DNA of 64,000 nt from an uncultured Clostridia bacterium (GTDB taxonomy: Bacteria > Bacillota > Clostridia > UBA1212). A model generated the notes under the pieces. That model searched no databases. It saw only the letters and a program-made list of their open reading frames with translations, and was not told the DNA's origin. The DNA is taken from positions 25,501-89,500 of the forward strand of contig CAMZBI010000001.1 in NCBI GenBank assembly GCA_947304585.1. The letters run 5' to 3'. Positions 32,057-53,775 of this stretch are shown here, in pieces (the first letter of the stretch is position 1; the number at the start of each line of letters is the position of its first letter). The translations under genes and the position numbers were made by a program.

Positions 32057-32415
32057 CAAGACAGAATCAGGGGGGGTAGCCGTCGAGGTTACCCCCCTGA
32101 TTCTGTCTTGAAACAATAGCGTTGGATTCGAACCCGAGGCCCCCGCAAAATCGTCAGATATATTAAATATGGGGTCCCCGTAAAATCGTTAGATTTTGCG
32201 GGGAAGAGGAGCCACAGCGACGCAAACGGAGACTTTCAAGAGAGAAAGAGAGGAAGTTTCTTGAAAGTCGGAGTCCACGTTGCTTGTGGCGACGTGGAGC
32301 CGCAGCGGAGCGATTGAAGTCTTCCAACAAAGGAGAAAAAAAGAAAACCGTATTAAAACAAGAAATAACGGTTTGTTGCCGACTGAATGATGAAACTTCT
32401 GCCGGCTTTTTTATG
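32057..32415 (+). repeat. structured modular repeat, copy A (abuts tRNA-Ala; ends in terminator)
   Basis: 17-bp hairpin immediately after the tRNA; GGGATTCGAACCC; helix CCCCGCAAAATC…GATTTTGCGGGG; GAGGAGCC; GACTTTCAAGA…TCTTGAAAGTC hairpin; terminator TGCCGACTGA…TCAGCCGGCTTTTTT. Confidence 0.7.
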
Positions 32416-32516
32416 CAAAAGCAAACTTTTTGTGGCAAGACAAGACGAAATGAGTTTGGTACAATTTGCAATGTAAAAAATAGCCGGCATTTTTAAGACG
32501 GGAGGTGATTCCGCAA

Positions 32517-33005
32517 ATGAACACAGCTGAAAAAATCATAGCGCTCAGAGCTGAGAGAGGCATTTCGCAGCAGGAACTTGCTGACGCAGTTTTTGTTTCA
32601 CGATCTCTCGTGTCAATGTGGGAGGCGGGAACACGCATTCCGGACAGTTTGAGCGTTGAGAAAATGGCTGCGTTGTTCAATGTAAGTGAGGAGGAGATTT
32701 TGAGCGATAGGAAATACGCTTTTGCGTCGTCGCTTGAGAGGAAACTCATTGGCGATGAGATTGCGGAGTTTACCGATGTTGACAGTTCACCGGGTGACAA
32801 GGAACAGGTAAAAAAGATAATGAACGGGTTCCTTCAAAGCATTGGTGGCGTTGACCGCGAGTTGTTTATGAGTCGATACTTCGAAATGAAAACATGCAAA
32901 GCTATCTCAGAGGAAACGCATATGAACGTTTCTACAGTCAGGTGGAGATTGTCCAAACTGAGAAAGAAGCTTGTGCTTTACGCGAAAAAAGGAGGTAAAA
33001 AATGA
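32517..33005 (+). CDS. XRE-HTH + sigma-70 region 4 fusion regulator (ECF-like)
   Basis: N-terminal Cro/C1 HTH (…RGISQQELADAVFVSRSLVSMWEAG…); C-terminal sigma region 4.2-like (…RELFMSRYFEMKTCKAISEETHMNVSTVRWRLSKLRKKL). GGAGGTG RBS. Confidence 0.65.
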   Translation: MNTAEKIIALRAERGISQQELADAVFVSRSLVSMWEAGTRIPDSLSVEKMAALFNVSEEEILSDRKYAFASSLERKLIGDEIAEFTDVDSSPGDKEQVKKIMNGFLQSIGGVDRELFMSRYFEMKTCKAISEETHMNVSTVRWRLSKLRKKLVLYAKKGGKK

Positions 33006-35233
33006 ACGAAAAAGACTTTAGGGAGGCTTTGTCTGAGATTGGAAATGACGTCGATGCGCCAATTTCGGGCGACGCAGTGATAAAAAATAAAAGTAAATTC
33101 AGAAACATTGTGATCATATCTGCCGCGGCGGCAATCGTGCTGACTTTTGCGGTCATTGCCGCTGTTATTATCGGTACGATCGGATCGAATAATCAAAACA
33201 TAAGCGGGGGAGGGCCTTCTGACAAGGTCCTTTTGGTGAATACTCCTTCGCCTGGAGGTATTGACAAGACCGAAGAACCCGGCAATAAAGCAAACCACGG
33301 GGCAACGTCCTCGCCGACCGCAGACCCGACTTCAGCTCCCACAAATCCGCCAATTTCTCAGCCCACTGAGACTCCTGATGGACCTCAAGGGACTCGGGAG
33401 CCTTATTACGTTGAGCCTTTCTGGCTTAAGGGGGAGTATTTGACGGTCAAAAAGCTTGGCTACGGCGGCTCCTCAAACATCGTTTCCTTTGGCGAGGGGA
33501 GTGTCAGCGCAAAGATTATCCCCACAACGGTATTCGGCGAGCATGAGAACTGCGGGAAGGTCTACTATAACACGGAGACCAATGAGATATATTGCGTTTA
33601 CCACGAGTTTCTGGAGGCCTCGGGCGTGACCGTGCCGGAGGGTTATTACATCTATTATGAGCAGGACACGGTGCGGGACGATCTGATGTGCATAAAGATT
33701 GTTGATCCGGGTGACCTTGGCACCACGGACCTGTGGCTTTTTGACATGGACGACCGCCTGGCAAAGAGAGTGGGGCTTCCGGAGGGATGCGGCAGCTACG
33801 AGGATATAAAGATCTATACGCCGGGCCTCTGCAACGGGAAGCTTGCCCTTTGCGTCAGCGATGACATTGGCGATTGCTACATAAGTATTTTTAACAGCGG
33901 AACAGGTGAATATCAGGACTTCGGCAAGGACGCAGGCCTTAAGTCTCTGACCTGCACCTTCCTGACGGAGACTGTGCTTGAGGTGTCGACTCCCGACGGG
34001 TATTACGCCTGGAACACCGCCAATTCTAGAATGTTCAAGCTTATCGGTGAGCACAATATCGTGTTTGACGGGCTCCTTTATTCCGTGAAGAACTGGTGGG
34101 GAGGCTACCATAAGGACGTGGAAGTGGCGGTATATAACGTCGAGACCGGGCTCCTGAGGAAGGGAAGCGGCGGCGTGTTGGCATTGGCGGTGATGGACGA
34201 CGGATCCTACGGCGTGCTTTCTATTGACGACGAGACCGGAAATGAGACGGTCATCATGGATCATTATACGGAGGGCGCTACTGCCTGGAGCAAAGATCAT
34301 GCCTACTTTTACGCATATTCCGCCAAGGACAACAGAGTCCTCTGCTATTCGGTCTCCGCTTGCCAATGGACTTTTGCAGACGTTGCTCCGATAACAAAAG
34401 ATCCGGTACTCGTCGAAGGGACTCTTTATGCGGTGTTCAACAGCTGCAGGCTTGCCGTCGACGACAACTGCAGGGAGGTTACGCTTTACCACACAAGAAA
34501 ACTGGAAGAAATACCTGACCTTCCGGATTTTGAGGAGCAGAGGGTTGACTCCCCTTACTGGGACGACTATCGCGACATTGCCGCAAATAACCGTTTCTCG
34601 GAAACTGACCGCTGGTATGTCACCTACAAAGAGGACAGGGTCAGCACGGGATGGATCGGACATGACGTCGCCAACATGGATGCCCTGCGGGATATCATAC
34701 TGCTTTGCCTGGAGACCCGGGGCGAAAGACTAAAATACGATTTGACTGAAAGCGATTACGACTTCTTTAAAATGAGTTTCAGCTACAGTACATTCAGCAT
34801 GGAGTTTTTTGAAAAAGACGGCAGATACTACTTGAATCTCAATGCCAACAGACAGCCTCCAATGGGTTTCGTGAGTGAATTCAGCGAGATACCGGAAGAG
34901 ACTTTCCTAAGGGTCATGGATATGCACAGCCCTTACGTTCAGTTCACATGGATATCGGTATCAGCCCGAATCGACGATGTTTCAGATCCAAATTGCAAGG
35001 TGGTACTTGATGAGAGCGAGAAGAGTTATTTGAAGGAGTTAATATCTTCCGGCAATTGGAGGCAAAACGATTTTCAGGGCGTTACGTATTTCAGGTACGC
35101 ATGCTTTTTCATTGACGGTGATGTGTGGTTCTGTTATGAGCCCAACATGAAAATCTTGCAGGATATCATGCACTCAACACATATAGAGCTAACAGACGAG
35201 GAGTGCGCCGCCATCGACATAATGCTGAATTGA
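33002..35233 (+). CDS. single-pass membrane anti-sigma-like protein with large extracytoplasmic domain
   Basis: 4-nt overlap with the regulator gene; short cytoplasmic N-terminus, one TM helix (IVIISAAAAIVLTFAVIAAVIIG), about 680-aa exterior domain. Confidence 0.5.
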   Translation: MNEKDFREALSEIGNDVDAPISGDAVIKNKSKFRNIVIISAAAAIVLTFAVIAAVIIGTIGSNNQNISGGGPSDKVLLVNTPSPGGIDKTEEPGNKANHGATSSPTADPTSAPTNPPISQPTETPDGPQGTREPYYVEPFWLKGEYLTVKKLGYGGSSNIVSFGEGSVSAKIIPTTVFGEHENCGKVYYNTETNEIYCVYHEFLEASGVTVPEGYYIYYEQDTVRDDLMCIKIVDPGDLGTTDLWLFDMDDRLAKRVGLPEGCGSYEDIKIYTPGLCNGKLALCVSDDIGDCYISIFNSGTGEYQDFGKDAGLKSLTCTFLTETVLEVSTPDGYYAWNTANSRMFKLIGEHNIVFDGLLYSVKNWWGGYHKDVEVAVYNVETGLLRKGSGGVLALAVMDDGSYGVLSIDDETGNETVIMDHYTEGATAWSKDHAYFYAYSAKDNRVLCYSVSACQWTFADVAPITKDPVLVEGTLYAVFNSCRLAVDDNCREVTLYHTRKLEEIPDLPDFEEQRVDSPYWDDYRDIAANNRFSETDRWYVTYKEDRVSTGWIGHDVANMDALRDIILLCLETRGERLKYDLTESDYDFFKMSFSYSTFSMEFFEKDGRYYLNLNANRQPPMGFVSEFSEIPEETFLRVMDMHSPYVQFTWISVSARIDDVSDPNCKVVLDESEKSYLKELISSGNWRQNDFQGVTYFRYACFFIDGDVWFCYEPNMKILQDIMHSTHIELTDEECAAIDIMLN

Positions 35234-35282
35234 CGTGCAGGGTTCAAAAGGACAGGTCGGCGGATGTGACGGATTGAACAGC

Positions 35283-35752
35283 GCATCTATTAAGGATGCA
35301 CTGTAGGGTAAAAACGGCCCACTGCATCTAAACCGACCACACACCACACAGACGCAGGGAGTAGCCTCCACGGCTACTCCCTGTGTCTGTAATAGAAACT
35401 ACCTGGTGGGATTCGAACCGGGGCCCCCGCAAAGATTTGGCGAAAAGGCTTTAATAACGCCAATTCTTTGTGGGGAAAAGGAGGCGCAGAGATGCAAACA
35501 AAGTGATTCAAGCGAATTTGTTCTTAAAATGCTTAGATCACGCAGTCGGCGTCTCTTGCGGCGACGCATTCGTACGCTATTGAGGCTTTTCAAACACGGG
35601 TTTCAAAACTGAAAAACAGTCTTTTTTACAGGTTTTTCTAAAGATTTTTTTGCCGAAATCAATGACCGGTTTCCGGGAAATCCGAGAACAGGATCAAGAA
35701 TAACAACGATATGTTCCCGACTGATTGATGAATATTCAGCCGGCTTTTTTTT
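35283..35752 (+). repeat. structured modular repeat, copy B
   Basis: TGCACTGTAGGG…CTGCATCTAAACCGACCACACACCACA; hairpin CAGACGCAGGGAGTAGCC/GGCTACTCCCTGTGTCTG; 18-bp helix CCCCGCAAAGATTTGGCG…CGCCAATTCTTTGTGGGG; AAAGGAGGCGCAGAGATGCAAAC; micro-ORF; terminator. Confidence 0.75.
35529..35612 (+). other. Arg-rich micro-ORF inside repeat copy B (MLRSRSRRLLRRRIRTLLRLFKHGFQN)
   Basis: ATG conserved in copies B, C and D2; coding status uncertain. Confidence 0.25.
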
Positions 35753-35821
35753 ATGCAAAAAAATGAATTGAAGGATTTCACATCGAAGGAACAATTGAAA
35801 ACAATTTCACACTTTGTACAT

Positions 35822-38230
35822 TCACTCAACCGCTTTCTGTTTACCGAAAAGGATAGAGCCAAGAGAAATATAGTCTCCGCGCACATGATCGATCCTGAAC
35901 CTCGCCGAGCGGTCATACTCATATACCATGTATGCGCCGCCGCAATAATCCTTTAAAATTTTCACAGGAGCAATCAGGTTTAAGCTTTTTGCGTCAAACA
36001 TCTCTACCGCGAGGCAGCAGTCCGGAGCATTGGCAGTAAAACGGAGAGCCACAGTATATTTCTGCTTCCGTTTCATCTTAATATCGGCGGTGAAAGACTG
36101 GGCGCAAACGTTATCATAATTTGTGCCGTAGGTTTCAGAGCCGCCGTTTTTGATGTAAATCCCGCGTGACAGGACGATATCTTCAACATATTCCGGAAGC
36201 TTTGATTTAACCATGGAAGAGCAGTCAAAGAAGCCGTCACTGCCGTATTTCTCATTGGCGTCGCGGTCGATGCCTTTGAAGGACGCAGGGTAGCAAAACA
36301 TAGGTGCTCTGTACGTTTTAACCCTTCCGGTATAAGCGGCGCTGAAAGTGTATTCCCCGGCGGAAATGTTTTCATAATAACAAAAATCATCGTCTTCCTT
36401 GTCAAAGGTTGCAGGGGAACCATTCAATTCTATATTTGAAATACGCATTCCTGCCTTGGGGATGGCGACGAGAGCTTCCGTACCTTCGGGTACCGAAACA
36501 TGATGAATTCCTTTTTTTATGTCAAACGAGGCTCTTATTGTGCCGTGAGGCGTAGGCATATCGCCAATGACATTTTTTAACTGAGTGCCCAAATGGGGGA
36601 TAACCGAAAACTTCTCGAAACCCGGTTTGACAGGTTTTATACCCAGTACTTCTGTGCTTAGAAAAGCAAGGACGCCTGCGCTCCAGGGATGAGCAAGACT
36701 TGTATATCCCGCCTGACTGTTCGGCAAGGGACCGTTCTTGTCGATTTCGTCTTTCCAGCCCGGACGAAAAACTTCAAAGAAGCAGGTCCCGCCGTATTCT
36801 ATCTGAGACCCCCAAAGATCAAGGATCGATGATAAAGCATCATCGTATTTACCTGTTTTGGCGAGAGCCTTAAGGATAAAGAACTCGTTGAAGGGAGAAT
36901 AGGATATGCGGTTGGTGCGGTCGTTAAAAAACTTTTTGAACAATTCTTCTCGGACCTTTCCGTCTGCGACACCGGCATTCACCGAGTCCGCAAAAGCATG
37001 GATGCCGCAGGACTTGTGCCATAAAGGATCGCTGCTTAAAAGAATACCCTTTTCCTCAGCATATCTCGTGCAACGCCGGGCGTAGTCCTGCCGCCCGAGC
37101 AAATTGAATATATCGGCATATTTTTTGAAACATTCAATGGAAAGAAACTTATATGAAAGACGGTTCTCGGGTATGTCCGGGTTTTCAAAACCCGCGCCAA
37201 GGCGTTCATCCCAGCCGAAAAATGAGAGCGGATAGTTTTTGTCAAAGATTTCATTGGCGTGTTCCAGTCTTTTAACAGCCTCGTCGATCAAACTCAATAC
37301 GCCTACATTATCTCCGGAAAAATCATAGTAGTCGGCAAGTGAAAGAAGCCAGTACAGTTCAAAGCTTTCTATACCGTTCGGGTGTGCGGAAGTATGTTTC
37401 AGGTTTTCAAGCACAAAGTCATAGTTGGCAAATGCTGCAAGAGAAGCTGCCTGAGCGGTGTAAGCGTCTCCTGTCCACGAATGGCGATCACCGCGGTCAA
37501 TAAGTATTGCCGACATGTAGTCTTTTTTCAAATTGACTCTAACGTCATAGGCAGCCGTGTACCAGATCCGGTTCAGCATCCGATTGTCGCACTCAAATGA
37601 GCCGTAATAGTTGACCGGTTTTACCTGGCAGACAAGTCTTACGCCGGTGATATGAAATTCCTTTTTAAGTCCTTGTATATGAATGAAACCGAAGCGCACG
37701 CCCTCATAAAGTTCCGGGTTAAGAACAAGCCTGTAAACGGTATCTGACACTTTTACGGGGTGCCTTGTCTTTTTTGATGACTGAACTCCCCGGTTAACGA
37801 TCTCGGGACTTGTGTACTCACTGACGCTTAACACAATGTTTTCCGGATCGCCAAGGTCAGGACTCATTATCTCAAGCCACGCCGCAAATTCCGAACCGAA
37901 GTCGATCATTACGGTACCATCGCCTTTTACGGTTAAATCTGTATCACCGGAAAGCAACGATTCAAGGTTCAGGAAACTGTTATTGTCCTCCGTTTCATAC
38001 TTTACCGGATAGGCGAAGAAAACCCGCAGCTCGTTTCCTGCGCTCACGTCGTCAAAGCGATAAGACAGAAGAGGATCAGGGGAAAAAGCAGCACCGGCGT
38101 TTTTTACCAATGTCCCGCCCGATATGTGTTTATAAGGTTCTTCGATATCAATATTGGCGATATTGATTCTGAATCTGTCGGAATGATCGTTGCACATGAA
38201 ACTCTGATTATCAATTTCCCGCAAAAGCAT
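35822..38230 (-). CDS. six-hairpin glycoside hydrolase, alpha-L-rhamnosidase-like (GH78-like)
   Basis: 802-aa ORF; central (alpha/alpha)6-type segment (…RHSWTGDAYTAQAASLAAFANYDF…). Exact start uncertain; family assignment by resemblance only. Confidence 0.5.
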   Translation of the reverse strand: MLLREIDNQSFMCNDHSDRFRINIANIDIEEPYKHISGGTLVKNAGAAFSPDPLLSYRFDDVSAGNELRVFFAYPVKYETEDNNSFLNLESLLSGDTDLTVKGDGTVMIDFGSEFAAWLEIMSPDLGDPENIVLSVSEYTSPEIVNRGVQSSKKTRHPVKVSDTVYRLVLNPELYEGVRFGFIHIQGLKKEFHITGVRLVCQVKPVNYYGSFECDNRMLNRIWYTAAYDVRVNLKKDYMSAILIDRGDRHSWTGDAYTAQAASLAAFANYDFVLENLKHTSAHPNGIESFELYWLLSLADYYDFSGDNVGVLSLIDEAVKRLEHANEIFDKNYPLSFFGWDERLGAGFENPDIPENRLSYKFLSIECFKKYADIFNLLGRQDYARRCTRYAEEKGILLSSDPLWHKSCGIHAFADSVNAGVADGKVREELFKKFFNDRTNRISYSPFNEFFILKALAKTGKYDDALSSILDLWGSQIEYGGTCFFEVFRPGWKDEIDKNGPLPNSQAGYTSLAHPWSAGVLAFLSTEVLGIKPVKPGFEKFSVIPHLGTQLKNVIGDMPTPHGTIRASFDIKKGIHHVSVPEGTEALVAIPKAGMRISNIELNGSPATFDKEDDDFCYYENISAGEYTFSAAYTGRVKTYRAPMFCYPASFKGIDRDANEKYGSDGFFDCSSMVKSKLPEYVEDIVLSRGIYIKNGGSETYGTNYDNVCAQSFTADIKMKRKQKYTVALRFTANAPDCCLAVEMFDAKSLNLIAPVKILKDYCGGAYMVYEYDRSARFRIDHVRGDYISLGSILFGKQKAVE

Positions 38231-38233
38231 TTC

Positions 38234-39307
38234 TCATCGGTCTATAACAGCTTTAATAACTCCGCCGCCGATAACCAAACCTCTTTCATCATAAAAAACG
38301 GCGGACTGCCCCTGTGCGGCAGCCCTCACGGGCTCGTCAAATTCAACTCTTACAGTGTCGTTTCTCGCTTTTTCGATAAATGCGGGCTGACCTTTGTGCC
38401 CGTATCTGATCTTGACAATGCATCTTACTTTTTTACTGTCCTCAAGGCTCTCAATACTCATAAAGTTCAGATTATTGCAAAGTATTTCCCGATTGTAGAG
38501 AGAGTCACTCTTTCCGATAACGACTTCGTTTTTTTCCGGGAGTATTTCCTTCACATAGCCCGGATATCCCAGGGAAATACCGAGCCCTTTTCTTTGGCCC
38601 ACAGTGTAATATATGATTCCCTTATGCCTTCCCAGCACATTTCCGTCAGGATCGACAAAATTGCCTTCTTTTGCACAGCCTGTTTTGGCTGCAATAAAGT
38701 CCCCGTAGCTCCCGCCGGTCACAAAGCAAATCTCCTGAGAATCCGGCTTTGAAGCAACGGCAATTTCCGCCTCCTTTGCGATACTTCTGACTTCGTCTTT
38801 ACTTAAACCGCCAAGAGGCATCAGCGTCGCTGCAAGCTGTTCCTGGGTCAGCCTGTAAAGCATGTAAGTCTGGTCCTTTTCGGTATGGCAGGCTGTCTTC
38901 ACCGTATACCTTCCGTTCTCAAGCTTTTCAACAGAAGCGTAGTGCCCGGTGGCAATATGATCTGCCCCGAAAACCTTGGCGTAAAACAGAAGCTTCTCCC
39001 ATTTAACATACCTATTGCAAAAAACACAGGGGTTGGGTGTACGGCCGGAAAGGTATTCGCCGACAAAAGGCTCTACTATATGTCTCCTAAAATCCGACGT
39101 ACAGTTTATGGGATAATAAGGTATGCCGATGCTTCTTGCGGCGTCTCTTGCATCGTCGATGTCGCAACAACGTCCTTCGTCACCGTCTTCAGTCTGCCAG
39201 ACCCTCAGGGTCACGCCAATGACATCATATCCCTCTTTTTTTAGGAGATATGCCGCTACGGCGCTGTCGACTCCTCCCGACATTCCCACAACAACCTTAT
39301 TACCCAT
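38234..39307 (-). CDS. mnmA: tRNA 2-thiouridine(34) synthase
   Basis: PP-loop VVVGMSGGVDSAVAA and conserved cysteines. Confidence 0.9.
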   Translation of the reverse strand: MGNKVVVGMSGGVDSAVAAYLLKKEGYDVIGVTLRVWQTEDGDEGRCCDIDDARDAARSIGIPYYPINCTSDFRRHIVEPFVGEYLSGRTPNPCVFCNRYVKWEKLLFYAKVFGADHIATGHYASVEKLENGRYTVKTACHTEKDQTYMLYRLTQEQLAATLMPLGGLSKDEVRSIAKEAEIAVASKPDSQEICFVTGGSYGDFIAAKTGCAKEGNFVDPDGNVLGRHKGIIYYTVGQRKGLGISLGYPGYVKEILPEKNEVVIGKSDSLYNREILCNNLNFMSIESLEDSKKVRCIVKIRYGHKGQPAFIEKARNDTVRVEFDEPVRAAAQGQSAVFYDERGLVIGGGVIKAVIDR

Positions 39308-39572: not shown

Positions 39573-40266
39573 GACTCTATTTAGTTTTCAAGTCATGTTA
39601 TCTTGTACACTGTATCTATTTAGTCTGTACAGTGCATCTTTTAGGGATGTACAGTAGGCCAAAAACGGCCCTCTGCATCTAAATCGACCACACACCACAA
39701 GGTGAACCCGGGTCCCCGAAAGTGCTCGCGCTTTTGGGGAGAGGAGCCGGGGCGGCGGGAATGGAGTCTTTCAAGTGAGGATCTATAAACTTCTTGAAAG
39801 ACGGAATCGTCGGCGTTCGCGGCGACGAAAATAGATGCACACGCAAAAATCGGCTATTTTTAGCCGATTGGAGCGGCTCGAAAGGCCAAAAATTTTAGTG
39901 CGAAATAAAAAGATGCAAAAGCCTATTCCCGAGGGGAATCCATAGGGGCCCCCGAAACTCGCTTTCACACATTGGCCCGTCACTAGTCCGCTTTCGCGGA
40001 AATCGTTCCGGCTCCAATGTGTGGCGCGAGATGGGCCTATTTATGCGCTTTTGGGGAGAAGGAGCCGCAGAGACGCAAACGAAGTGGTCCAAGCGAATAC
40101 AATCTTATAATGCTTGAAACACGCAGTCGGCGTCTCTTGCGGCGACGCATTCGTACGCTATTAAAGCCTTACAACAAGAGTCTTTAAGGGAAAAAGAGAG
40201 CTATATTAAAACAAGAAATAACGGTTTGTTGACGACTGAGTGATGAAACTTCAGCCGGCTTTTTAG
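39573..40266 (+). repeat. structured modular repeat, copy D (composite, two tandem module sets)
   Basis: ACTGTATCTATTTAG and TGTACAGT(×2) block; CCCCGAAAGTGC…GCGCTTTTGGGG; GTCTTTCAAG…CTTGAAAGAC; AATCGGCTA-TTTTT-TAGCCGATT; second helix CCCCCGAAA…CTTTTGGGG enclosing CACACATTGG…CCAATGTGTG; micro-ORF; terminator. Confidence 0.75.
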
Positions 40267-40409
40267 ATCCGACAAACATCCAATCAATGTTTCTTTGTTT
40301 TGTAACGGTTGACTTTCTGCCATTTAAAAATCACGCAATCTATGCTATACTGTCATTACTAAATTTGAAATGCCAAACTGGCAGAGCAAGTTAAGATTGG
40401 AGCCTTGCT

Positions 40410-42755: not shown

Positions 42756-43254
42756 CATATGCATCTATTTGGTCTGAACACTGTATCTATTTAGGATGTA
42801 CAGTAGGGTAAAAACGGGCCTCTGCATCTAAATCGACCACACACCACACACAGAATCAAGGGGTAGCCTTCGCGGTTACCCCTTGATTCTGTGTTGAAAC
42901 AATAGCGTGGGATTCGAACCCGGGGCCCCCGAAAGATTTGGCGAAAAGGCTTTAATAACGCCAATTCTTTGTGGGGATAAGGAGCCGCAGAGACGCAAAC
43001 GAAGTGATTCAAGCGAATTTATTCATAAAATGCTTGGATCACGAAGTCGGCGGCTCTTGCGGCGACGCATTCGTACGCTATTGAGGCTTTTCAAACACGG
43101 GTTTTAAGACTGAAAAACAGTCTTTTTTACAGGTTTTTCAAAAGATTTTTTACCGAAATCAACGACCGGTTTCCGGGAAATCCGAGACCGGGATCAAGAC
43201 AAATAACAACGATCTGTTGCCGACTGAGTGATGAAAATTCAGCCGGCTTTTTGG
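42756..43254 (+). repeat. structured modular repeat, copy C
   Basis: Near-identical architecture to copy B, but the 5' hairpin is ACAGAATCAAGGGGTAGCC-TTCGC-GGTTACCCCTTGATTCTGT. Confidence 0.75.
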
Positions 43255-46443: not shown

Positions 46444-46561
46444 CCGCTTCGATTATATTAAAACAGTATCGTTATTGCAATATCGCTTCACGGTTTTGCA
46501 ATTGTAATTGCAATCATTATGAAGTAATCTTATTTCATACTTTTGTTTGGAGGACGCAGCA

Positions 46562-49500
46562 ATGAAAAAACGGATTCGAGGGTTTCTCTGTATTCTGTTG
46601 GGCATAGTGATGATATTGCTCTACGGCTGTGACGGGACAGGCAACGGCCCCGGAAGAGTATACGTTTTTGACGACGGCATAACAGAAGACAGAGGTCAGG
46701 CGGGCACGGAAACGAAGGAGCCGCAGATCTATTCGTACACTCAGAATTTTGACCAAAGGATAAAGGCAAACGATCCCGACTGGTACGTAAATTCCGAGGG
46801 GACCTTCGAGGACGGAGTGTTCAAGAGCAAAACGAATCACGCCTATTTTGCCTCAAAACACAAGATAAAAACTGATGTATTTGTCGCCGAATGGGACGTC
46901 AATACGGACAGAAAAGGCAATACCGATAACGTTTCCGAATACATAGGACTGAGGCTTCCGGGATACGATGATCAGTTCGCCGCCGTCGGGTCCAACGGCA
47001 TCTGGTTCCTGTTTCACAATAACAAAGTCGGAATAATAGACACCTGGCCGACAGTTAAATCGTTTAAGGTTGACGTCGATTTCTCAAAAACGCAGCGCGT
47101 CAGAGTTACCGACAATACCGTTGACAACATCATTACTTTTGAAGTGCAGCAGGAGGGTGAATTCCGGCCTCTCTTTTCTGCGGTGATCGAAGACGGGAAA
47201 AACGTTTTTGTGAAGGACGTGAACGGTAAAGACAGGATCAAAGCCAAATTCACTTATGATATTGACACAAAGGGCTATTTTTCTCTCTGGTCAAGCGGGG
47301 GCAATTCGGGAAGCGCATACATTGACAATGTTGAGATCAATTGGAAAGAAGCTTTGCCGGAGCAATACCATCCTGCGGATATTACTCTTTTGCGCGACCT
47401 GTACTCCGACACCTGGGTAGCGACTGACGACCTTGACAGAACGGTTTCTGACGGCGCCGCTGCACCCCGCGACAAGCTTGTGGGAATGTTTTACCAGATC
47501 TGGTTTACGCCAACGAGCGTGACCTATTCCGATCAAAAAATATACGATCACAACAAGATCTATCATGAGGGCGGTTTTGAAGCCCTCAAAAAGGCCTACG
47601 ATAAAGGTCCGCAGGGCTGGGGCCACTACTGGGGAGAGCCCTATTTCGGCTATTATCTCACCAATGACAAATGGATAATCCGGAAGCACGCGTCAATGCT
47701 TTCGGACATTGGCGTGGATTTCATATTTCTTGACGTTACAAACGGCAACTCCCAGACCACGAGCTACCGCGCAATATTCAAGGAGTACGAGCAGATGCGC
47801 AAAGAGGGCCTTGATACGCCTGACATTTGTTTCTTCATTGCCGACAACACAAGTCTTGTGGAGAACGTTTTTCTTGACATTTGGGACGACGTTTATTCCA
47901 CCGGCCGGTACAGTGATCTTTACGTCATGTACGACGGAAAGCCCCTTATCCTTGGCAATTTGTCGGAACTGTCTGAAGAGGCAAGTGCGATCGCCAATGA
48001 GAATTTCACCTGGCGCCGCTGCTGGGCGCTCCGGGAAAACGTAAAAGACGGAAAGGATTTCTGGACCTGGATGCACGAGACGCCTCAGGTCGCGTCCTAT
48101 AACTCGAAAAAAGGCAATGCGGTGGAGGAGATCTCTATATCCGCAGGAATACTTGCCAATACGAGCACGGGCAGAAGTTTCTCAAACGGCAAACAGCCCG
48201 GAGTCGGCACGCTCCCTGACGGTACGAAGGATTATTTCCAGTTCAACCTCGAAACGACGGGACAGGGTCTGCTGTTTAAAGAGCAAATGCAACGGGCTCA
48301 AGAGGTAGATCCATATGTTGTTCTTATCAACGAGTGGAACGAGTGGATCGCGGGGCGCTGGGAGGGAACGGGGCATCCCACGATTGCCAACACATACGTA
48401 TCATGGTCCGACAGCTTTTACGTTGACTGCTTCGATCCGGAATTCAGCCGCGACATCGAGCCGATGAAGGGCGGATTTGGCGATAATTATTATTATCAGC
48501 TGGCTGCATTCCTGCGTACCTTTAAGGGCGGACGTACCGCTCCTGCAGCCTCCGGCCAGCACGAAATATCGCTTAACGGGGGGCTTGACCAGTGGTCAGA
48601 CGTATGGCCCGAATACCGCGATACGACGGGCGATACGCTCCACAGGGATTCGCTTGGCTACGGCGGACTGGTATCTTATAAGAACGACAGCGGCAGGAAC
48701 GATATCGTCAGCGCGAAAGTTTCAAGAGCCAACGGAAAAACGTACTTCCTGGCGGTATGCGCGGATTCGCTGACTCCCCGGGAAGGCGAAAACTGGATGA
48801 ACCTTTTCATTGATACCGACGGCAATTCCGCCAACGGCTGGCACGGATACGATCTGATCATAAACCGCGACAACGGCTCTATCGAAAAGTTCACGGACGG
48901 ATGGAATATGCAGAAGACCGGTCAGTGCGAACTGTTTGCAGGCGAGAACTATCTGGTGCTCGCAGTCGACGACGCTTCCTGCGGCCTTGGCGCTGATTTT
49001 AACTTCAAATGGTCCGACAACTCCACCACCACAGGCGAGATAATGCAGTTCCTTGACCTTGGGGACGCCGCTCCGAATGCCCGGTTCAACTATGCGTACA
49101 GAACAAAAGCAAAAGAAACAAAGCTTACCGCCAATGTCAAGACCGTTGTCGGCGCAGGCGCTTCGTTTACAGCGAACAGACCTTACGCTTTGTCTGACGG
49201 GAAAATCGCGGCTGTCTACGGTGCGGATACGGCGGTCCTGCCGGAGATGCATAAAAACAGGCTGTTTGTACCCGCCTCTTCCCTAGACATCATCAAAGAT
49301 ATGACGGTCACGGTATCGGGCGGTACCGCAACCGTAAAGTATAAAAACAAGACTTTTGTTTTCGAGGACGGCAACAAAGAAGTGAAACGCGGCAATGATA
49401 CCTATCAGATACCTGTGGCGCCTTACGTAAAAGGCAACGTCCTGTACGTTCCGCTCAATGCCGCCGCATTTATTGCCGGATTGAATTACGTGCAAAATGA

Positions 49501-49588
49501 TCTTGGCGTTGCGATCGTTACTCCCGCCAAACTGCCAAATGAAGATAAAGTCAATGGGGCGTTAAACGAACTGTATATTTCGTATTGA
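46562..49588 (+). CDS. large secreted lipoprotein, glycoside-hydrolase-like core plus C-terminal copper-amine-oxidase-N-like domain
   Basis: Signal/lipobox …LLYGCDG; GGAGG RBS. C-terminal …YQIPVAPYVKGNVLYVPLNAAA… resembles the Cu-amine-oxidase N-domain of clostridial surface proteins. Catalytic family unresolved. Confidence 0.45.
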   Translation: MKKRIRGFLCILLGIVMILLYGCDGTGNGPGRVYVFDDGITEDRGQAGTETKEPQIYSYTQNFDQRIKANDPDWYVNSEGTFEDGVFKSKTNHAYFASKHKIKTDVFVAEWDVNTDRKGNTDNVSEYIGLRLPGYDDQFAAVGSNGIWFLFHNNKVGIIDTWPTVKSFKVDVDFSKTQRVRVTDNTVDNIITFEVQQEGEFRPLFSAVIEDGKNVFVKDVNGKDRIKAKFTYDIDTKGYFSLWSSGGNSGSAYIDNVEINWKEALPEQYHPADITLLRDLYSDTWVATDDLDRTVSDGAAAPRDKLVGMFYQIWFTPTSVTYSDQKIYDHNKIYHEGGFEALKKAYDKGPQGWGHYWGEPYFGYYLTNDKWIIRKHASMLSDIGVDFIFLDVTNGNSQTTSYRAIFKEYEQMRKEGLDTPDICFFIADNTSLVENVFLDIWDDVYSTGRYSDLYVMYDGKPLILGNLSELSEEASAIANENFTWRRCWALRENVKDGKDFWTWMHETPQVASYNSKKGNAVEEISISAGILANTSTGRSFSNGKQPGVGTLPDGTKDYFQFNLETTGQGLLFKEQMQRAQEVDPYVVLINEWNEWIAGRWEGTGHPTIANTYVSWSDSFYVDCFDPEFSRDIEPMKGGFGDNYYYQLAAFLRTFKGGRTAPAASGQHEISLNGGLDQWSDVWPEYRDTTGDTLHRDSLGYGGLVSYKNDSGRNDIVSAKVSRANGKTYFLAVCADSLTPREGENWMNLFIDTDGNSANGWHGYDLIINRDNGSIEKFTDGWNMQKTGQCELFAGENYLVLAVDDASCGLGADFNFKWSDNSTTTGEIMQFLDLGDAAPNARFNYAYRTKAKETKLTANVKTVVGAGASFTANRPYALSDGKIAAVYGADTAVLPEMHKNRLFVPASSLDIIKDMTVTVSGGTATVKYKNKTFVFEDGNKEVKRGNDTYQIPVAPYVKGNVLYVPLNAAAFIAGLNYVQNDLGVAIVTPAKLPNEDKVNGALNELYISY

Positions 49589-49629
49589 CCGTACTCGTTT
49601 GAATACGGGAAGAGTCTTCCTTCAGCGCC

Positions 49630-49740
49630 GCACCTGTTTGGTCTGCATACAGTATCTTTTTATATGCACACGCAGAAATCGGCTATTTTTAGCCGATTGG
49701 AGCGGCTTGGAAAGCGATTTTTTGAGCAATGAAATAAAAA
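49630..49740 (+). repeat. partial copy (E) of the structured repeat
   Basis: TTTGGTCTGCATACAGTATC…GCACACGCAGAAATCGGCTATTTTTAGCCGATTGGAGCGGCTTGGAAAG matches the internal segment of copy D. Confidence 0.55.
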
Positions 49741-49819
49741 GAGACAAATGCCAATTATGGCGTTTTTGTGCTGTCGATTGCGGATCGGTAGGCATTGGCG
49801 CCAATGCTGCCGGATCGCA

Positions 49820-51238
49820 TCACCTTTTTCCCGCATCCTTGCCGATCCTGAAGATAAGATTGCCGTTTTCGTCATAGCCGGAATAAACGGTCTCCACGTT
49901 GAGTCCGATCGAATTAACAAGCGGGCCCTTATCATATACACTTTTCACGTATTCCGAAACTATGAGACAGTACTCACCGTAATCAATAACTGCAGTCGGC
50001 GTTCCTGCGTCAAAGTCCTGAAAACGACTGTCATTTGAGAAAATGAATGAACCGTTTATAATTCCCACTAACGATTCGTTGCGAAACATATTATCTGACA
50101 CTGTCGATCCGAGAACGTTAAGGTCGTAATCGATCTCCACGTTCATGTCGACAGCGAGAACGGTTTTACCGGAATCAACAAAATCACCGTCGGTCGACTG
50201 CGTTCTGACGAAAAGCATAAACCCGCCCTCAGAGGGTTTTGCATAGTTTAAATGATCAAAATCACTGCCTTTGAGGAAACCTCTTTTGATCTCTTGTCCG
50301 TCATCGGCGAGAATGATCATTATAACGTCGGTCTCTCCGTAGTCACGCCACTTCTGCTGATCACGATGCGTTCCGAAAAAGAAATATCTGCCTTCCCTTT
50401 CGATGCAGTTGTAAAACGAACTGCCCTCAAGGCCGTCAAATGCTTTATCAAACTGGAGATTTCCGAATCTGTCGCATTTTATGACTCTCGAGGCGTAACC
50501 TTCATCGCTCGCCCGTTTTTGATCCAAATAGTCATAAGTATAATCTTGAAAGCCGAGGACGAAAAGAAAGCCTCCGTCGGAAGTTGCGGTCAGTGTCGTG
50601 ACGATGTATGCGTCATCGCATTTCACGGTATACTCGGCAAGAACGTCGCCAAAGATATCGAGCATCGTTACCTTTTGAACGACCGTTCTCGTTTCCGGAT
50701 CTTTTTCAACGGTCTCACTTTTCAGCAGTCTGTCGGAAAAAGCTTTGGCGTCTTTAAAGGCGTTCTCATCGATGAGGCTCGTAAGCTCCGGCGGTATCGC
50801 GCCGCTGTCTGTCTCTCGAGGCGGGAAAACGTACCTGTTCCAGATTTCCTCAAGCATCTCGGGTGTCATTTCGGCGTTCCCGATCTCCTCGCAGGGAACA
50901 CTGTTTTTGATTACTTCCGCTGTTTTCTCATCCGTGAACCTTTTTTCTATGATATCGAAGAATACGTTTTTCATTTCTGTACGGCTGAGACCTTCCGAAT
51001 TCAGTCCGTTGTTTTCAAAGAAGGCTGAAGCAGCGTCAAAGGCCTTGGCTTCCGAATAGGCAAATACGCCTGCCACGGCAGCAAGTGCCGCGATTAGAAG
51101 AACGCATACGGACACGGGTATCCATCGTAAATGGTTCCGGCTGTTTTTTTTACTCGATCCTGAGTACGATCTCAAAGCACGGTCAGCCATTTCTTCGTCT
51201 ATACCGGCGAACGCGTCGAAAAGCTGGTTATCTTTCAT
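49820..51238 (-). CDS. single-pass membrane anti-sigma-like protein (paralog of 33002..35233)
   Basis: N-terminus MKDNQLFDAFAGIDEEM resembles MNEKDFREALSEIGNDV of the first partner; one TM helix; 4-nt overlap with the upstream regulator gene. Confidence 0.5.
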   Translation of the reverse strand: MKDNQLFDAFAGIDEEMADRALRSYSGSSKKNSRNHLRWIPVSVCVLLIAALAAVAGVFAYSEAKAFDAASAFFENNGLNSEGLSRTEMKNVFFDIIEKRFTDEKTAEVIKNSVPCEEIGNAEMTPEMLEEIWNRYVFPPRETDSGAIPPELTSLIDENAFKDAKAFSDRLLKSETVEKDPETRTVVQKVTMLDIFGDVLAEYTVKCDDAYIVTTLTATSDGGFLFVLGFQDYTYDYLDQKRASDEGYASRVIKCDRFGNLQFDKAFDGLEGSSFYNCIEREGRYFFFGTHRDQQKWRDYGETDVIMIILADDGQEIKRGFLKGSDFDHLNYAKPSEGGFMLFVRTQSTDGDFVDSGKTVLAVDMNVEIDYDLNVLGSTVSDNMFRNESLVGIINGSFIFSNDSRFQDFDAGTPTAVIDYGEYCLIVSEYVKSVYDKGPLVNSIGLNVETVYSGYDENGNLIFRIGKDAGKR

Positions 51239-51717
51239 TTTTTTGACTCCTTTATGTACCTTGCAAGTTTGGCTCTTGTCTTTGAGAGAATGCTCCTGAC
51301 GTGATTCTCGCGAATGCCGTACGCTTCAGCGATCTCGGCAGTGTTCTTCAGGTGATAGTAACGATTAATAAAAATATCAGCGTCCTTTTCCGGGATGCTC
51401 CTTAGAAAACGGTCCAAAACAACTGCCAGATCTGCGTCGCTGATTTCGATTCCGGCAAGGTTGCCGTCAAAGAGTTCTTTGAAAACAAGGTCGGTTGTAT
51501 CAACTATTTCGTCAACTTTGGCGTTAAATACTTCTGCTATTTTTTCGATCATACGATAATTCGGACGCCTCGTTCCGTTTTCCCATTTTGAGACCAGATC
51601 TCTTGAGACAAACAAACTGTCGGCAAGCACCTGCTGAGACATACCGTTTTTATTGCGCAATTCACTTATTTTTTTGCCGATATTCAGCGAAAACACCTCC
51701 TTTGACCATGATCGCAT
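51235..51717 (-). CDS. XRE-HTH + sigma-70 region 4 fusion regulator (paralog of 32517..33005)
   Basis: Same two-domain architecture (…GMSQQVLADSLFVSRDLVSKWENG… and …DIFINRYYHLKNTAEIAEAYGIRENHVRSILSKTRAKL). Confidence 0.65.
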   Translation of the reverse strand: MRSWSKEVFSLNIGKKISELRNKNGMSQQVLADSLFVSRDLVSKWENGTRRPNYRMIEKIAEVFNAKVDEIVDTTDLVFKELFDGNLAGIEISDADLAVVLDRFLRSIPEKDADIFINRYYHLKNTAEIAEAYGIRENHVRSILSKTRAKLARYIKESKK

Positions 51718-51900
51718 GTAAATTATACCTCATTGACGGTAACATAATAAGGGACAAAACGCACCCGGACCGGAAAGATTGTTTTCGTAAGCTTATTCCC
51801 CGAATTTTTTATGATTTTGGGAAATAATCCCGGTACTCTGATGATCCGAAGGTGCTCTCTTGCCAATGGGACAGGGAAGAAGTAAGCGGGACTCTTTACG

Positions 51901-52085
51901 GAGTTATGTACAGTACCCGCGAAAACCCTTAAAAACCCGGGAAAATACCGCCAAGAAATCTAAAACGACCACACCCCCCAAGGATAAAGACTCCTTCGCG
52001 GGGGCTTTTTCGTGGCGTTGTACAAGCGCTAAGAGGCCCCCGAAAGCGCTTGCACTTTTGGGAGGAGAAAAGCCGCAACGACGTT
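51901..52085 (+). repeat. partial copy (F) of the structured repeat, upstream of the AAA ATPase gene
   Basis: ATGTACAGTA…TCTAAAACGACCACAC; GACTCC-TTCGC-GGGGGTC hairpin; GAGGCCCCCGAAAGCGCTTGCACTTTTGGGAGGAG. Confidence 0.65.
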
Positions 52086-52201
52086 TTTGGATATGAATCA
52101 AATTCACTTGACAAATTGCGATTATGTATATATAATGCCAAAAACAAATTGCGATTACGTCGTGATTTGACCCAAAAGAAATTGCGACAGGAGATTACGC
52201 C

Positions 52202-53530
52202 GTGTTTAGAAGAAAAATCTATGATAAGCTTTTGGAGTGGAAAAAGGAATCACAGGGCAGAACTGCGTTGATGATTGAAGGGGCTGGGCGAGTTGGAAAA
52301 TCGACAGTAGCGGAAGAATTTGCGAAAAATGAATATGACAGTTTTATTCTTATAGACTTTTCAATTGCGCCGCAGGCTGTCAAGAACCTTTTCGATGATA
52401 TGTCGAATCTTGATTTCTTCTTTCTTCAACTTCAACTGCTATACCATGTCGACCTCGAAGAACACAGATCTATTATTATTTTTGACGAAGTGCAGTTCTT
52501 TCCAAAAGCCAGGCAGGCGATAAAGCATCTGGTCAAGGACCGAAGATACGATTATCTTGAGACGGGCTCTCTTATCTCGATAAAGAAAAACGTAAAAGAC
52601 ATTCTGATTCCAAGTGAGGAACAGAAAATCAAAATGTATCCGATGGACTATGAGGAATTCCTTTGGGCCATTGGCGATAATACGACGATTCCTCTGATCC
52701 GCCAATGCTTTGAATCGCGAAAGGCTGTGGGCGAACAGCTGAACCGGAGACTTATGCGCGATTTCAGGTTATATATGCTTGTCGGCGGTATGCCTCAGGC
52801 TGTAAATGAATACCTGGAAACGAATAATTTACGGAAAGTCGATCTTGTCAAGCGAACGATTTTGTCGCTTTACGAAGAGGATTTCAGGAAAATCGACCCA
52901 TCCGGAAGAGCTTCTATGATGTTCGATGCCATACCTGCGCAACTTTCGAAGAACGCATCAAGATATATGATAACAAGTGCTCTGCAAAAGAGAAAGACCG
53001 AAAAAACATCCGAAATGATAGCCGATATGGCAGATTCAGGGACCGTTTTGATTGCTTGTCATGCTGACGACCCGAACGTCGGCCTTTCGGCCACCGGAGA
53101 CTTTTCCTCTTTTAAGATGTTTGTATGTGATACCGGACTTTTCGTAACACTGATGTTCAAGGACCGTGATTTTACTGAAAATATCATATATGAAAAACTG
53201 CTTAACGACAAGATTGGAGCAAATCTTGGATATTTGTACGAGAATGCCGTGGCACAAACGCTTGCATCTAACGGAGACAGGTTGTTTTACTACACATTTT
53301 TCAACGAGTCATCCCGGCACAACTACGAGATCGATTTTCTCTTGGCACGCGGAAACAAGATTTGCCCTGTTGAAGTTAAATCGTCAGGATACAAGGCCCA
53401 TGTTTCTTTAGATAAGTTTTTTGAGAAGTACTCGTCGCGTATTCTTCAAAAATATCTTGTTTATACTAAAGATCTCGCCAAAGATACCGATACGCTTTGC
53501 GTGCCTGTTTATATGGCCCAATTCATGTAA
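52202..53530 (+). CDS. AAA+ ATPase (AAA_14 + DUF4143 family)
   Basis: Walker A GAGRVGKST; the widespread orphan ATPase family; GTG start after AGGAG; low GC. Confidence 0.75.
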   Translation: MFRRKIYDKLLEWKKESQGRTALMIEGAGRVGKSTVAEEFAKNEYDSFILIDFSIAPQAVKNLFDDMSNLDFFFLQLQLLYHVDLEEHRSIIIFDEVQFFPKARQAIKHLVKDRRYDYLETGSLISIKKNVKDILIPSEEQKIKMYPMDYEEFLWAIGDNTTIPLIRQCFESRKAVGEQLNRRLMRDFRLYMLVGGMPQAVNEYLETNNLRKVDLVKRTILSLYEEDFRKIDPSGRASMMFDAIPAQLSKNASRYMITSALQKRKTEKTSEMIADMADSGTVLIACHADDPNVGLSATGDFSSFKMFVCDTGLFVTLMFKDRDFTENIIYEKLLNDKIGANLGYLYENAVAQTLASNGDRLFYYTFFNESSRHNYEIDFLLARGNKICPVEVKSSGYKAHVSLDKFFEKYSSRILQKYLVYTKDLAKDTDTLCVPVYMAQFM

Positions 53531-53775
53531 GATTATTGCCAAGAAAACTAAAACGTCTACACACTCCACGAAAAAAGACTCCTTCGCGGGGTCTTTTTTC
53601 GTGGTGGAGCAAGTAAAGAAAGAGGCCCCCGAAAGTGCTTGCACTTTTGGGAGGAGGAGCCAAAACGGCGGAAATGGGGAGTCCTTCAAGGAAACGAAAA
53701 AACGAGAGTGGAATAATGACAAATAATAACGGTTTGTTGCCGACTGAGTGGTGAAGCTTCAGCAGGCATTTTTTA
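53531..53775 (+). repeat. copy G of the structured repeat, immediately downstream of the AAA ATPase gene
   Basis: CTAAAACGTCTACACAC; perfect 14-bp stem CCACGAAAAAAGAC/GTCTTTTTTCGTGG around the TTCGC loop; GAGGCCCCCGAAAGTGCTTGCACTTTTGGGAGGAGGAGCC; terminator. Confidence 0.7.

Follow-up and report, generated by a model that had tools for sequence, protein, structure and literature searches.

Structured non-coding cassette junctions in tandem behind a tRNA-Ala gene of an uncultured Clostridia bacterium, apparently part of a tRNA-targeting mobile-cassette system

What are the structured repeats that separate the gene sets behind the tRNA-Ala(CGC) gene of an uncultured Clostridia bacterium? The stretch analysed (the window) comprises 64,000 nt of contig CAMZBI010000001.1, assembly GCA_947304585.1. 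An initial annotation, made from the sequence alone, had described seven copies (A to G) of one family of large modular intergenic repeats and had read them either as stable small RNAs (sRNAs) or 3' untranslated-region elements, or as a recombination scaffold with cassette boundaries. The repeats are structured non-coding cassette junctions, arranged as a tandem array behind tRNA-Ala(CGC). They seem to be part of a mobile-cassette system of rumen Clostridia that targets tRNAs and has not been described before.

The repeats are real, modular, highly structured and located where first reported: repeat finding, blastn, a pattern search and a covariance model agree. Eleven repeat families found in the window (D1-D4, D6-D11 and D18) tie together regions A (32057-32415), B (35260/35283-35752), D (39573-40266), C (42756-43254), E (49630-49756), F (51901-52085) and G (53531-53775). 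In blastn against the whole window, the partners of each region lie at 32.0-53.8 kb only and all on the + strand; minus-strand matches are the regions' own hairpins. A degenerate pattern for module 6 gives five matches in the window, with 0.00 expected in shuffles. The covariance model of the core module gives five strong window matches (92-127 bits) and weak matches in G (53621-53745, E 0.011) and F (52032-52095, E 0.041). No match to this model is obtained in window 1-31.9 kb. The common + orientation, seen in all blastn partners, and the absence of copies from the 1-31.9 kb core part of the window, seen by blastn and by the model, both stand as first described.

The make-up of the seven copies needs correction. 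The regions are mosaics of at least four module types (RE2; H1 + antiT + core; LE2; arm + module 6), not variants of one element. Region D is a composite with two cores (RE2, core D1, a truncated second left end LE2, core D2). Region E is without a core and consists of an RE2 fragment fused to LE2. A coding region was rejected; no open reading frame (ORF) is consistent across copies, and one of four codons is present in copy B alone.

RE2 (module 1 of the initial annotation) is the right end of a cassette, ~90 nt long, with three ~20-nt direct repeats of the TGTACAGTGCATCTATTTAG type, the last split by a small hairpin, and the end ..TCGACCACA-CACCA (...CGACCA-CACCA). H1 (module 2, described initially as a long 5' hairpin and found as such) is a hairpin of 16-20 bp, -21 to -42 kcal/mol, z -6 to -10. 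AntiT (GGGATTCGAACC, 13-20 nt) reproduces the T arm of the adjacent tRNA-Ala exactly, in antisense. The core (modules 3-5) is ~125 nt long, starts after the GGGATTCGAACC motif, has three helices, namely P3 (CCCCGAAAG..CTTTTGGGG) and a long P4/P5 around a third hairpin, and ends with GGCGACG(C). A right arm (CATTCGTACGCTATTG..) connects the core to module 6, a conserved stretch with a T run. LE2, the second left-end type, is found in D (39828-39929, truncated) and E (49661-49756). It opens with 24 nt that repeat the RE2 motif in inverted orientation, continues with the hairpin AAAAATCGGCTATTTTTAGCCGATTTTT and closes with ..AAAAAGATGCAAAAG, beyond which the sequences diverge. It always directly abuts a ..CCA end and contains a conserved promoter-like stretch, TTGAAA-N17-TGAAAT, upstream of the core in some elements. 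Each module ends in a tRNA-like CCA, and the next begins right behind. The features of the array are as follows.

31984..32057, + strand: tRNA-Ala(CGC), array anchor (ARAGORN; Rfam tRNA, 66 bits; sequence).
32058..32110, + strand: copy A, hairpin H1, beginning directly at the tRNA 3' end (-42.2 kcal/mol, z -10.4).
32124..32136, + strand: copy A, antiT GGATTCGAACCCG, antisense to the tRNA T arm (sequence).
32137-32170, + strand: copy A, partial P3 duplicate ahead of the core.
32171..32294, + strand: copy A, core with P3, P4/hairpin/P5 and end GGCGACG (covariance model, 127 bits).
32352..32411, + strand: copy A, module 6, weak hairpin and T run (repeat families, pattern, folding).
32505-35233, + strand: cassette 1 after copy A, HTH-sigma4 gene and 743-aa gene.
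35260..35348, + strand: copy B, RE2, right end of cassette 1, end ..CCGACCACA-CACCA (family D4).
35349..35392, + strand: copy B, hairpin H1 (-38.4 kcal/mol, z -8.9).
35400..35419, + strand: copy B, antiT TACCTGGTGGGATTCGAACC, 19 nt exactly antisense to nt 52-70 of the tRNA-Ala(CGC) variant of sister loci L001 and L012.
35420..35566, + strand: copy B, core (covariance model, 117 bits).
35567..35752, + strand: copy B, right arm and module 6 (sequence, repeat families, pattern).
39573..39699, + strand: copy D, RE2 with three ~20-nt repeats, the last split by a small hairpin (sequence, repeat families).
39709..39827, + strand: copy D1, core without H1, antiT cut down to GGTGAACCC (covariance model, 92 bits).
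39828..39929, + strand: copy D, truncated LE2 with inverted RE2 motif, hairpin AAAAATCGGCTATTTTTAGCCGATT and end ..AAAAAGATGCAAAAG (families D10, D18).
39945..40147, + strand: copy D2, core with a large P3 insertion, without antiT (covariance model, 108 bits).
40148..40266, + strand: copy D2, right arm and module 6 (sequence, pattern); followed by cassette 3, an ORF6N/PDC-S05 gene and a 448-aa gene.
42756..42848, + strand: copy C, RE2 (sequence, repeat families).
42850..42892, + strand: copy C, hairpin H1 (-33.6 kcal/mol, z -8.8).
42900-42908, + strand: copy C, flank CAATAGCGT, pairing with ACGCTATTG of the right arm as helix P1.
42907..42920, + strand: copy C, antiT GTGGGATTCGAACC (sequence, folding).
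42921..43067, + strand: copy C, core (covariance model, 122 bits).
43068..43254, + strand: copy C, right arm and module 6 (sequence, pattern, folding).
49630..49756, + strand: copy E, RE2 fragment 49630-49660 and LE2 49661-49756, no core (families D10, D18; blastn).
51901..52095, + strand: copy F, variant RE2, G-type H1, P3 and truncated P4 (families D7, D8; core model E 0.041).
52202-53530: cargo gene AAA_14/DUF4143 (PDC-S01), beginning inside the core of copy F.
53531..53775, + strand: copy G, variant RE2 remnant, H1 at 53568-53606, degenerate core and module 6 (core model E 0.011; repeat families).

Module 6 had been called an intrinsic terminator. A T run and a hairpin are present, but the term is only partly supported, because folding of three copies gave -6.7, -6.9 and -13.9 kcal/mol (z -0.35, +0.26 and -2.2), the first two being weak hairpins. 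The loop, CUGA-N-UGAUGAA, resembles a C/D-box or kink-turn and is better conserved than the stem (32380-32400, 35718-35738, 40233-40253, 43221-43241 and 53741-53761), which suggests that the module may be kept for something other than, or besides, termination.

Sister loci were sought by exact-pattern scans, and their numbers are therefore lower bounds, as is the restriction to a few rumen Clostridia. The module-6 pattern gave at least three loci, in two rumen metagenome-assembled genomes (MAGs), in a genome collection; a metagenome scan gave at least nine loci, of which two, L006 and L011, are chance matches without a core. The two scans thus gave at least 10 real sister loci, all in rumen MAGs or metagenome contigs. 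L014 and L015 were added by later look-ups.

Wherever the array start is present in the sequence examined, it adjoins the 3' end of a tRNA gene and the array runs in the same orientation as that gene; the L008 array runs off the end of its stretch. The anchor is tRNA-Ala(CGC) in the window, L001 and L012, tRNA-Ala(GGC) in L004, tRNA-Lys(CTT) in L003, L007 and L014, and tRNA-Ser(GGA) in L005, L009 and L010. Genes upstream of array tRNAs are housekeeping genes. The window has a single tRNA gene, which ends exactly where copy A begins and is without an encoded CCA (..GGTCCAC followed by AAGACAG, 32050-32062), whereas the orthologues of L001 and L012 encode CCA (..GGTCCACCA). Variants of tRNA-Ala(CGC) have ACTAGG or ACCAGG; the antisense of copy B matches the ACCAGG variant, not the window's own tRNA.

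GGGATTCGAACC is the inverted T arm of the neighbouring tRNA, and the tRNA is the key to the family; this was missed initially. At sister loci, antiT changes to the antisense of tRNA-Lys or tRNA-Ser, alongside a 19-nt direct copy of the 3' end of that tRNA. The arrangement is clearest in cargo-less units of ~220 nt; L005 has two of them in tandem, L007 six. Such an array reads tRNA ..CCA, H1, a 15-20-nt spacer, antiT, core ..GGCGACGC, 19-nt tRNA copy, next H1. The 19-nt repeat is identical to the tRNA from T-loop A58 to CCA, with the same T-loop start in all four tRNAs (Ala-GGC, Lys, Ser, Ala-CGC), and occurs up to 7 times per array (L007). The tRNA is kept intact and given a new hairpin, the partial-tRNA direct repeats mark unit boundaries, and the core sits exactly at the junction of element and target. 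Behind the core, cargo-less units have the 19-nt copy; the others have the arm and a weak terminator, then cargo under its own promoter and finally RE2 ending ..CCA. In the window no 19-nt copy survives and the ..CACCA ends alone remain; the antisense segment is kept in copies B and C (14-19 nt).

Whichever tRNA the 19-nt copy behind the core comes from, antiT matches that tRNA. The match is 16-17 nt for Ser (GGGGGGATTCGAACTCC), 13 nt plus a further 6 for Lys (AGGGACTCGAACC + TGCACC), 14 nt for Ala-GGC (CGGGATTCGAACCC) and 13-19 nt for copies behind tRNA-Ala(CGC); the short match of copy A, 12-13 nt, does not separate the two Ala tRNAs. In Ser and Lys units, the next-best tRNA matches antiT over 7-11 nt. 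In RNAfold predictions, pairing of antiT with the 19-nt repeat closes the core as P1 in Ser, Lys and Ala-GGC units; in window copy C, P1 is made by CAATAGCGT and the arm segment ACGCTATTG. The predicted closing helix of a recombinant L001 unit is built from sequence other than antiT or the expected arm segment.

A second, unrelated scaffold, type 1b, lies between antiT and the 19-nt tRNA repeat (antiT-GCGAGGGTTTCGGCGTTAAGCAAATTCTCCGGTGGAGG...GCAGGCGGCG) in L003 (3020-3210), L007 (14140-14330), L009 (8620-8900) and L014 (5510-5700). In type 1b units the tRNA identity reaches 21 nt (CG+19). In the tRNA-Ser array of L009, non-local tRNA 3' ends (..CGTTCGAATCCCAATAGGTGCACCA, 8442-8460, and ..GCTGCGCCA, 5760-5771, both on the - strand) stand directly ahead of LE2. 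Cassettes thus seem to bring fragments resembling attachment (att) sites from other tRNA loci.

The core has a conserved, strand-specific fold. Searched against the window and sister loci, a covariance model from 13 cores (125 positions, 34 pairs) gives 20 strong matches: a divergent copy at 53 bits and 19 others at 85-130 bits. Each is oriented like the neighbouring tRNA; the opposite strand reaches at most 33 bits. In the alignment of these 20 sequences, which is fitted to the model and draws on few and closely related arrays, paired cells make up 94.4%, compared with 39-47% when partners are slid by 1-3 columns. Both sides change in 16 of the 34 pairs (55 cells), and 0 of 500 shuffles reach the observed values. 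G.U cells number 45 and A.C cells 14; the folding strand is therefore the tRNA-sense strand. Conserved purine-rich single strands are present. This strong covariation bears out the pairing of modules 4 and 5 and the long-range helix CCCCG..AAAG/CTTT..GGGG that had been proposed. A minus-strand tRNA or tRNA-like gene was rejected (T stem of 3 bp, no ARAGORN prediction, G.U versus A.C in favour of the + strand), as was a group I or group II intron (no Rfam support).

Such a fold raises the sRNA reading of the initial annotation, in which the repeats would be stable small RNAs or 3' trailers, released by tRNA read-through or from cassette transcripts, with a cellular function unrelated to mobility. 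Strong covariation, strand specificity with G.U pairs, the position of a tRNA trailer and the 3' T-run hairpin agree with it. The surroundings of the core do not: H1 lies upstream of it, most cores stand directly behind a terminator-type hairpin (15-20 nt behind in H1-type units), and a consensus promoter scan detects no promoter for cores. The 19-nt tRNA repeats, the tRNA-matched antisense, and the turnover and exchange of cassettes described below would also be unexplained. This reading is very unlikely.

Cassette 1 (HTH_3+sigma70_r4 and 743-aa genes, 32.4-35.4 kb) has relatives of 94-97% nucleotide identity in five other loci, behind tRNA-Lys in L003, L007 and L014, behind tRNA-Ala in L012, and in L008. 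The ORF6N cassette (window 40.0-40.6 kb) is found with 98% identity directly behind tRNA-Ala in L001. The cassette-1 protein of the window (tRNA-Ala) shares 96% identity with that of RUG13779 (tRNA-Lys), whose core protein beside tRNA-Ala has 48% identity to that of the window. Core scaffolds are 88-92% identical at three different tRNAs. By these identities, cassettes are exchanged between distantly related genomes and different tRNA loci. Similarity breaks in the window at 32167, 32351, 32363 and 32413 on the left and at 35291, 35390 and 35515 on the right, always inside repeat modules. These breakpoints differ from locus to locus, and homologous or microhomology-mediated exchange is therefore clearly at work; several truncated units are likewise explained by exchange between repeats. 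The alternative of cassette boundaries in a recombination scaffold, offered initially, fits these data.

The cargo includes candidate defence genes, namely AAA_14/DUF4143 (PADLOC PDC-S01; five copies, in either orientation), ORF6N (PDC-S05), Fic/Bro-N and AbiEi-like genes, together with genes for glycosidase-like proteins and mnmA. The latter, normally a housekeeping gene, encodes a tRNA 2-thiouridine synthase with three Pfam domains and lies between copies B and D (38234-39307, - strand), beside a rhamnosidase-like gene. Four homologous small HTH_3+sigma70_r4 proteins (32-49% identity) are encoded at the following sites.

Window 32505-35233, + strand: HTH_3+sigma70_r4 gene of cassette 1 with its large partner.
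Window 49820-51717, - strand: HTH_3+sigma70_r4 gene with its large partner.
L008 6080-6544: HTH_3+sigma70_r4 gene.
L009 7541-8020: HTH_3+sigma70_r4 gene.

Those of the window and L009 are followed by a gene for a large protein without a Pfam match; the pair is a recurring two-gene cassette type. The large partners are mutually non-homologous and were rejected as a shared recombinase. More distant homologues, found for two cargo genes (L016, L017), show no link to the repeats.

We put forward tentatively, at a little short of even confidence, that the units are non-autonomous integrative elements which target tRNA 3' ends, are mobilised in trans, and have an attachment module read as a folded single strand. 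We infer mechanism and enzyme as follows. The elements would integrate site-specifically in the T-loop-to-CCA segment, rebuilding the tRNA 3' end and bringing a new terminator, by means of an enzyme encoded elsewhere. Each insertion would recreate the ..CCA target, and because of this arrays would grow. The core and the antisense/sense pair (P1) would be the cis-acting attachment module, read as a folded strand much as integron attC sites and IS200/IS605 ends are. Within it, P1 would display the target T-loop/T-stem in duplex form, like the R box of attC or the folded attP of single-stranded phages; the antisense would therefore have to match the tRNA that supplies the 19 nt. Homologous recombination between repeated cores would then reshuffle cassettes and yield the mosaic, copy-specific module content. 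A bolder version is doubtful: an integron analogue of Firmicutes, anchored at tRNA genes, with the recombinase in trans, a folded module of ~200 nt (single-stranded DNA or RNA) and the target chosen by base pairing.

Several observations weigh against the proposal of non-autonomous elements mobilised in trans. Pfam searches of ~60 array ORFs (window 28-64 kb and the arrays of 11 sister loci) yield no integrase, resolvase, HUH enzyme, Tn7-type transposase, Cas-like protein or reverse transcriptase, the one exception being an ordinary insertion sequence (IS)-type DDE transposase in L009. The enzyme is hypothetical because no recombinase was found in the arrays. The complete island of L014, from tRNA-Lys to the L20 leader/infC (~10 kb) and bounded by core genes, contains no recombinase, and no Phage_integrase or recombinase is among the precomputed Pfam matches of L014 and L015. 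No excised circle or empty site was observed. In the window, copy C alone can form P1. LE2-type units have a core without an antisense segment. The sequences of H1 vary widely among units, which is unexpected in a protein-recognised end. The G.U pairs and the T run of module 6 fit RNA as well as single-stranded DNA. The breakpoints point to homologous recombination, which could alone move cassettes once arrays exist.

The distal border of the L014 island is marked by the L20 leader at 15786-15906 (+ strand; 49.6 bits versus 58.7 for gathering), ahead of infC-rpmI-rplT.

The arrays could instead be ordinary tyrosine-integrase islands that have decayed, accreted at tRNA genes in the way of cis-mobilizable elements, the 19-nt copies being att scars, RE2/LE2 arm-type sites and the core a structured passenger or regulatory sequence. 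Integrase-mediated insertion in tRNA genes is classically recognised by a 19-nt identity block from T-loop to CCA, regenerated tRNAs and tandem accretion, a principle given in PMC4383910 and seen in tycheposon islands; three direct ~20-nt repeats in RE2 and inverted copies of the motif in LE2 resemble attP arms. A double-stranded arm, however, does not explain 34 base pairs kept by compensatory changes on one strand, nor are the tRNA-matched inverted T arm and the multiplication of bare ~220-nt units (6 in L007) accounted for. No integrase remnant is seen in any array, and the element left of the repeat (GGCGACGC) is without similarity to a T-stem half-site. We regard this origin as distinctly unlikely.

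The strand-specific fold, with G.U pairs and conserved purine-rich single strands, also suits a guide-type non-coding RNA, in which P3-P5 would be the scaffold and a tRNA-matched segment the guide by which a trans-encoded effector steers cassette insertion or homing to tRNA genes. The guide would be the 5' antisense segment, as in single-guide RNA or IscB omega-RNA, or the 3' 19 nt, as in TnpB omega-RNA with the T-loop TTCG as adjacent motif. TnpB/Cas12-type nucleases cut at about 19 nt from the adjacent motif, and the insertion point, right after CCA, is 19 nt from TTCG. Cargo-bearing elements have an arm and T-run hairpin behind the core, the promoter-like stretch of LE2 precedes some cores, and antisense persists in copies B and C in the absence of the 19-nt repeat. 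Scaffold similarity at three tRNAs would agree with a guide RNA, but is explainable by recombination between arrays. In H1-type units, moreover, the core stands shortly behind a strong terminator-type hairpin with no promoter by consensus scan; LE2-type cores are without the antisense, no array has an effector gene, and no Rfam match to HEARO or other guide scaffolds is obtained. A guide RNA is unlikely.

That every module ends ..CCA with the next beginning immediately, that left ends vary while the right end (GGCGACGC + 19 nt) is constant, and that some units are shortened at the left would agree with retroposon-type spread, in which ..CCA-ending RNAs are reverse-transcribed and inserted behind the tRNA CCA by target priming or template switching. 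No reverse transcriptase is found nearby, however, and an RNA route is improbable for multi-kb cargo that has internal terminators and genes on both strands. '5'-truncated units' were rejected as evidence of reverse transcription; hairpin deletion or microhomology explains them better (L003 unit 2, GGTGCGCCAACAC versus GGTGCACCAACAC). Such spread is very improbable.

No known element accounts for the repeats, in agreement with the initial annotation. Rfam gives no match on them at gathering score or E<=5 (31.9-54 kb) beyond chance-level matches of microRNA or small nucleolar RNA type, and at E<=1 in L005 and L014 chance-level matches alone. Families without a match on the repeats include ROOL, GOLLD and raiA, named initially as candidates, as well as HEARO, OLE, tmRNA, T-box and group I/II introns. 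In the window the gathering score is reached by tRNA and purine riboswitch alone. No match of the composite D region to plasmid and phage collections is obtained by blastn. Scans of viral contigs with four patterns give one chance match (L013), without core or tRNA. For boxes of attC type (RYYYAAC...GTTRRRY), which in integrons close an imperfect palindrome of 55-141 nt, the seven regions (2606 nt, both strands) give 0 matches and the whole window 10 chance matches. No description of the element was found in the literature.

Comparison with described systems gives the following picture. Tycheposons of Prochlorococcus and Islander-type tDNA islands are alike in the regenerated tRNA, a displaced partial-tRNA copy per insertion, newer elements displacing older ones, and cargo-rich variable islands beside tRNAs. 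They carry their own tyrosine recombinase and often replication genes, whereas none is present here, even in the complete island; their att is a ~40-bp duplex, here replaced by a covarying single-strand fold of ~125 nt and an inverted T arm per junction. As to tRNA islands in general, the intact tRNA and displaced 3' copies are present and an integrase gene within the element is absent.

In the accretion of integrative and conjugative or mobilizable elements (ICEs, IMEs) of Firmicutes, cis-mobilizable elements (CIMEs) are recombinase-less cassettes between att repeats, mobilised in trans and arranged in tandem. The present arrays are alike in their recombinase-less tandem cassettes flanked by att repeats. 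The att of CIMEs is short and unstructured, however; here no partner ICE or IME is visible and one junction family serves four tRNAs.

Integron arrays, including clusters of attC sites lacking integrases (CALIN), are alike in co-oriented heterogeneous cassettes, structure-conserved strand-specific separating sites, end-paired site closure, possible integrase-less arrays and cassette shuffling. The resemblance is functional alone: here R boxes are absent, the module is 3-5 times longer, the anchor is a tRNA and not attI/intI, and cargo has its own promoters and either orientation.

IS200/IS605 elements, palindrome-associated transposable elements (PATEs) and TnpB/IscB omega-RNAs are alike in strand-specific hairpin ends and non-autonomous derivatives mobilised in trans. 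IS200/IS605 also insert 3' of a short motif without classical duplication (behind the T-loop TTCG would fit), and the omega-RNA is a right-end structured scaffold abutting a guide-length flank. Here, in contrast, no TnpA, TnpB or IscB gene is present in or near the arrays, HEARO has no match, left hairpins are unconserved (H1 is variable and right-end helices are unlike it) and the cargo is multi-kb.

Tn7-like and attTn7 islands are alike in fixed orientation downstream of an undamaged conserved gene, in tandem elements and remnants, in repeats within both ends, contiguous in threes (RE2) versus dispersed (LE2), and in 5'-TGTG...CACA-3'-like termini, with CACCA on both sides in some copies. 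Genes for TnsA/B/C/D are absent from the arrays, the 5-bp duplication is inconsistent (AATCG versus AGGCG in L014), and the innermost RE2 repeat is interrupted by a hairpin. Dispersed repeats of BOX, RUP or REP type or miniature inverted-repeat transposable elements do not fit either, and with them falls the initial likening to BOX/RUP: the repeats are not dispersed, arrays begin at tRNA 3' ends, and no copy is present in the 32-kb core part.

The system is closest in logic to tRNA-anchored islands with partial-tRNA repeats and CIME accretion, and in anatomy to integron attC arrays and IS200/IS605 ends. Each known system fails on at least one defining feature. The array is thus taken to consist of tRNA-targeting integrative elements of a form not previously described.

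The window has three further features apart from the array. A purine riboswitch aptamer lies at 25146-25273 (+ strand; 39.3 versus 37 bits for gathering in Rfam), upstream of ORFs in the core part. A separate repeat of ~87 nt (..TTTTGTGGTAGATTRCARTCACRGAGGCRAACAA..TTGCC..AGTCAAA) is present in three copies, 62452-62538, 63204-63290 and 63306-63392, all on the + strand, one of them upstream of a gene for a small signal-peptide-like protein (start near 62594). The repeat has the look of a common promoter or leader and has no relation to the tRNA-linked family. Two adjacent ORFs, 54010-54384 and 54423-56567 (+ strand), divide a Tubulin_2-like protein between them, the first covering Pfam profile positions 1-130 and the second 166-298; the gene may be frameshifted or interrupted.

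The core is a new conserved nucleic-acid structure of 34 base pairs, 16 of them with compensatory changes. Even a conservative reading shows 94-98% identical cassettes moving between genomes whose neighbouring core protein is 48% identical. If the proposed mechanism is true, it explains how variable islands rich in defence genes are assembled beside tRNAs of rumen Clostridia without a recombinase inside. The two tRNA-matched segments, found at four tRNAs, point to a choice of target that may lie in nucleic acid and not in protein. Such a system would be re-addressable between tRNAs by nucleic-acid sequence alone, because the target would be chosen by pairing of antiT and the 19 nt, and would offer a compact insertion system for safe-harbour sites just behind tRNA genes. 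To our knowledge, integrons have not been reported in this phylum; the arrays would be its first integron-like cassette platform.

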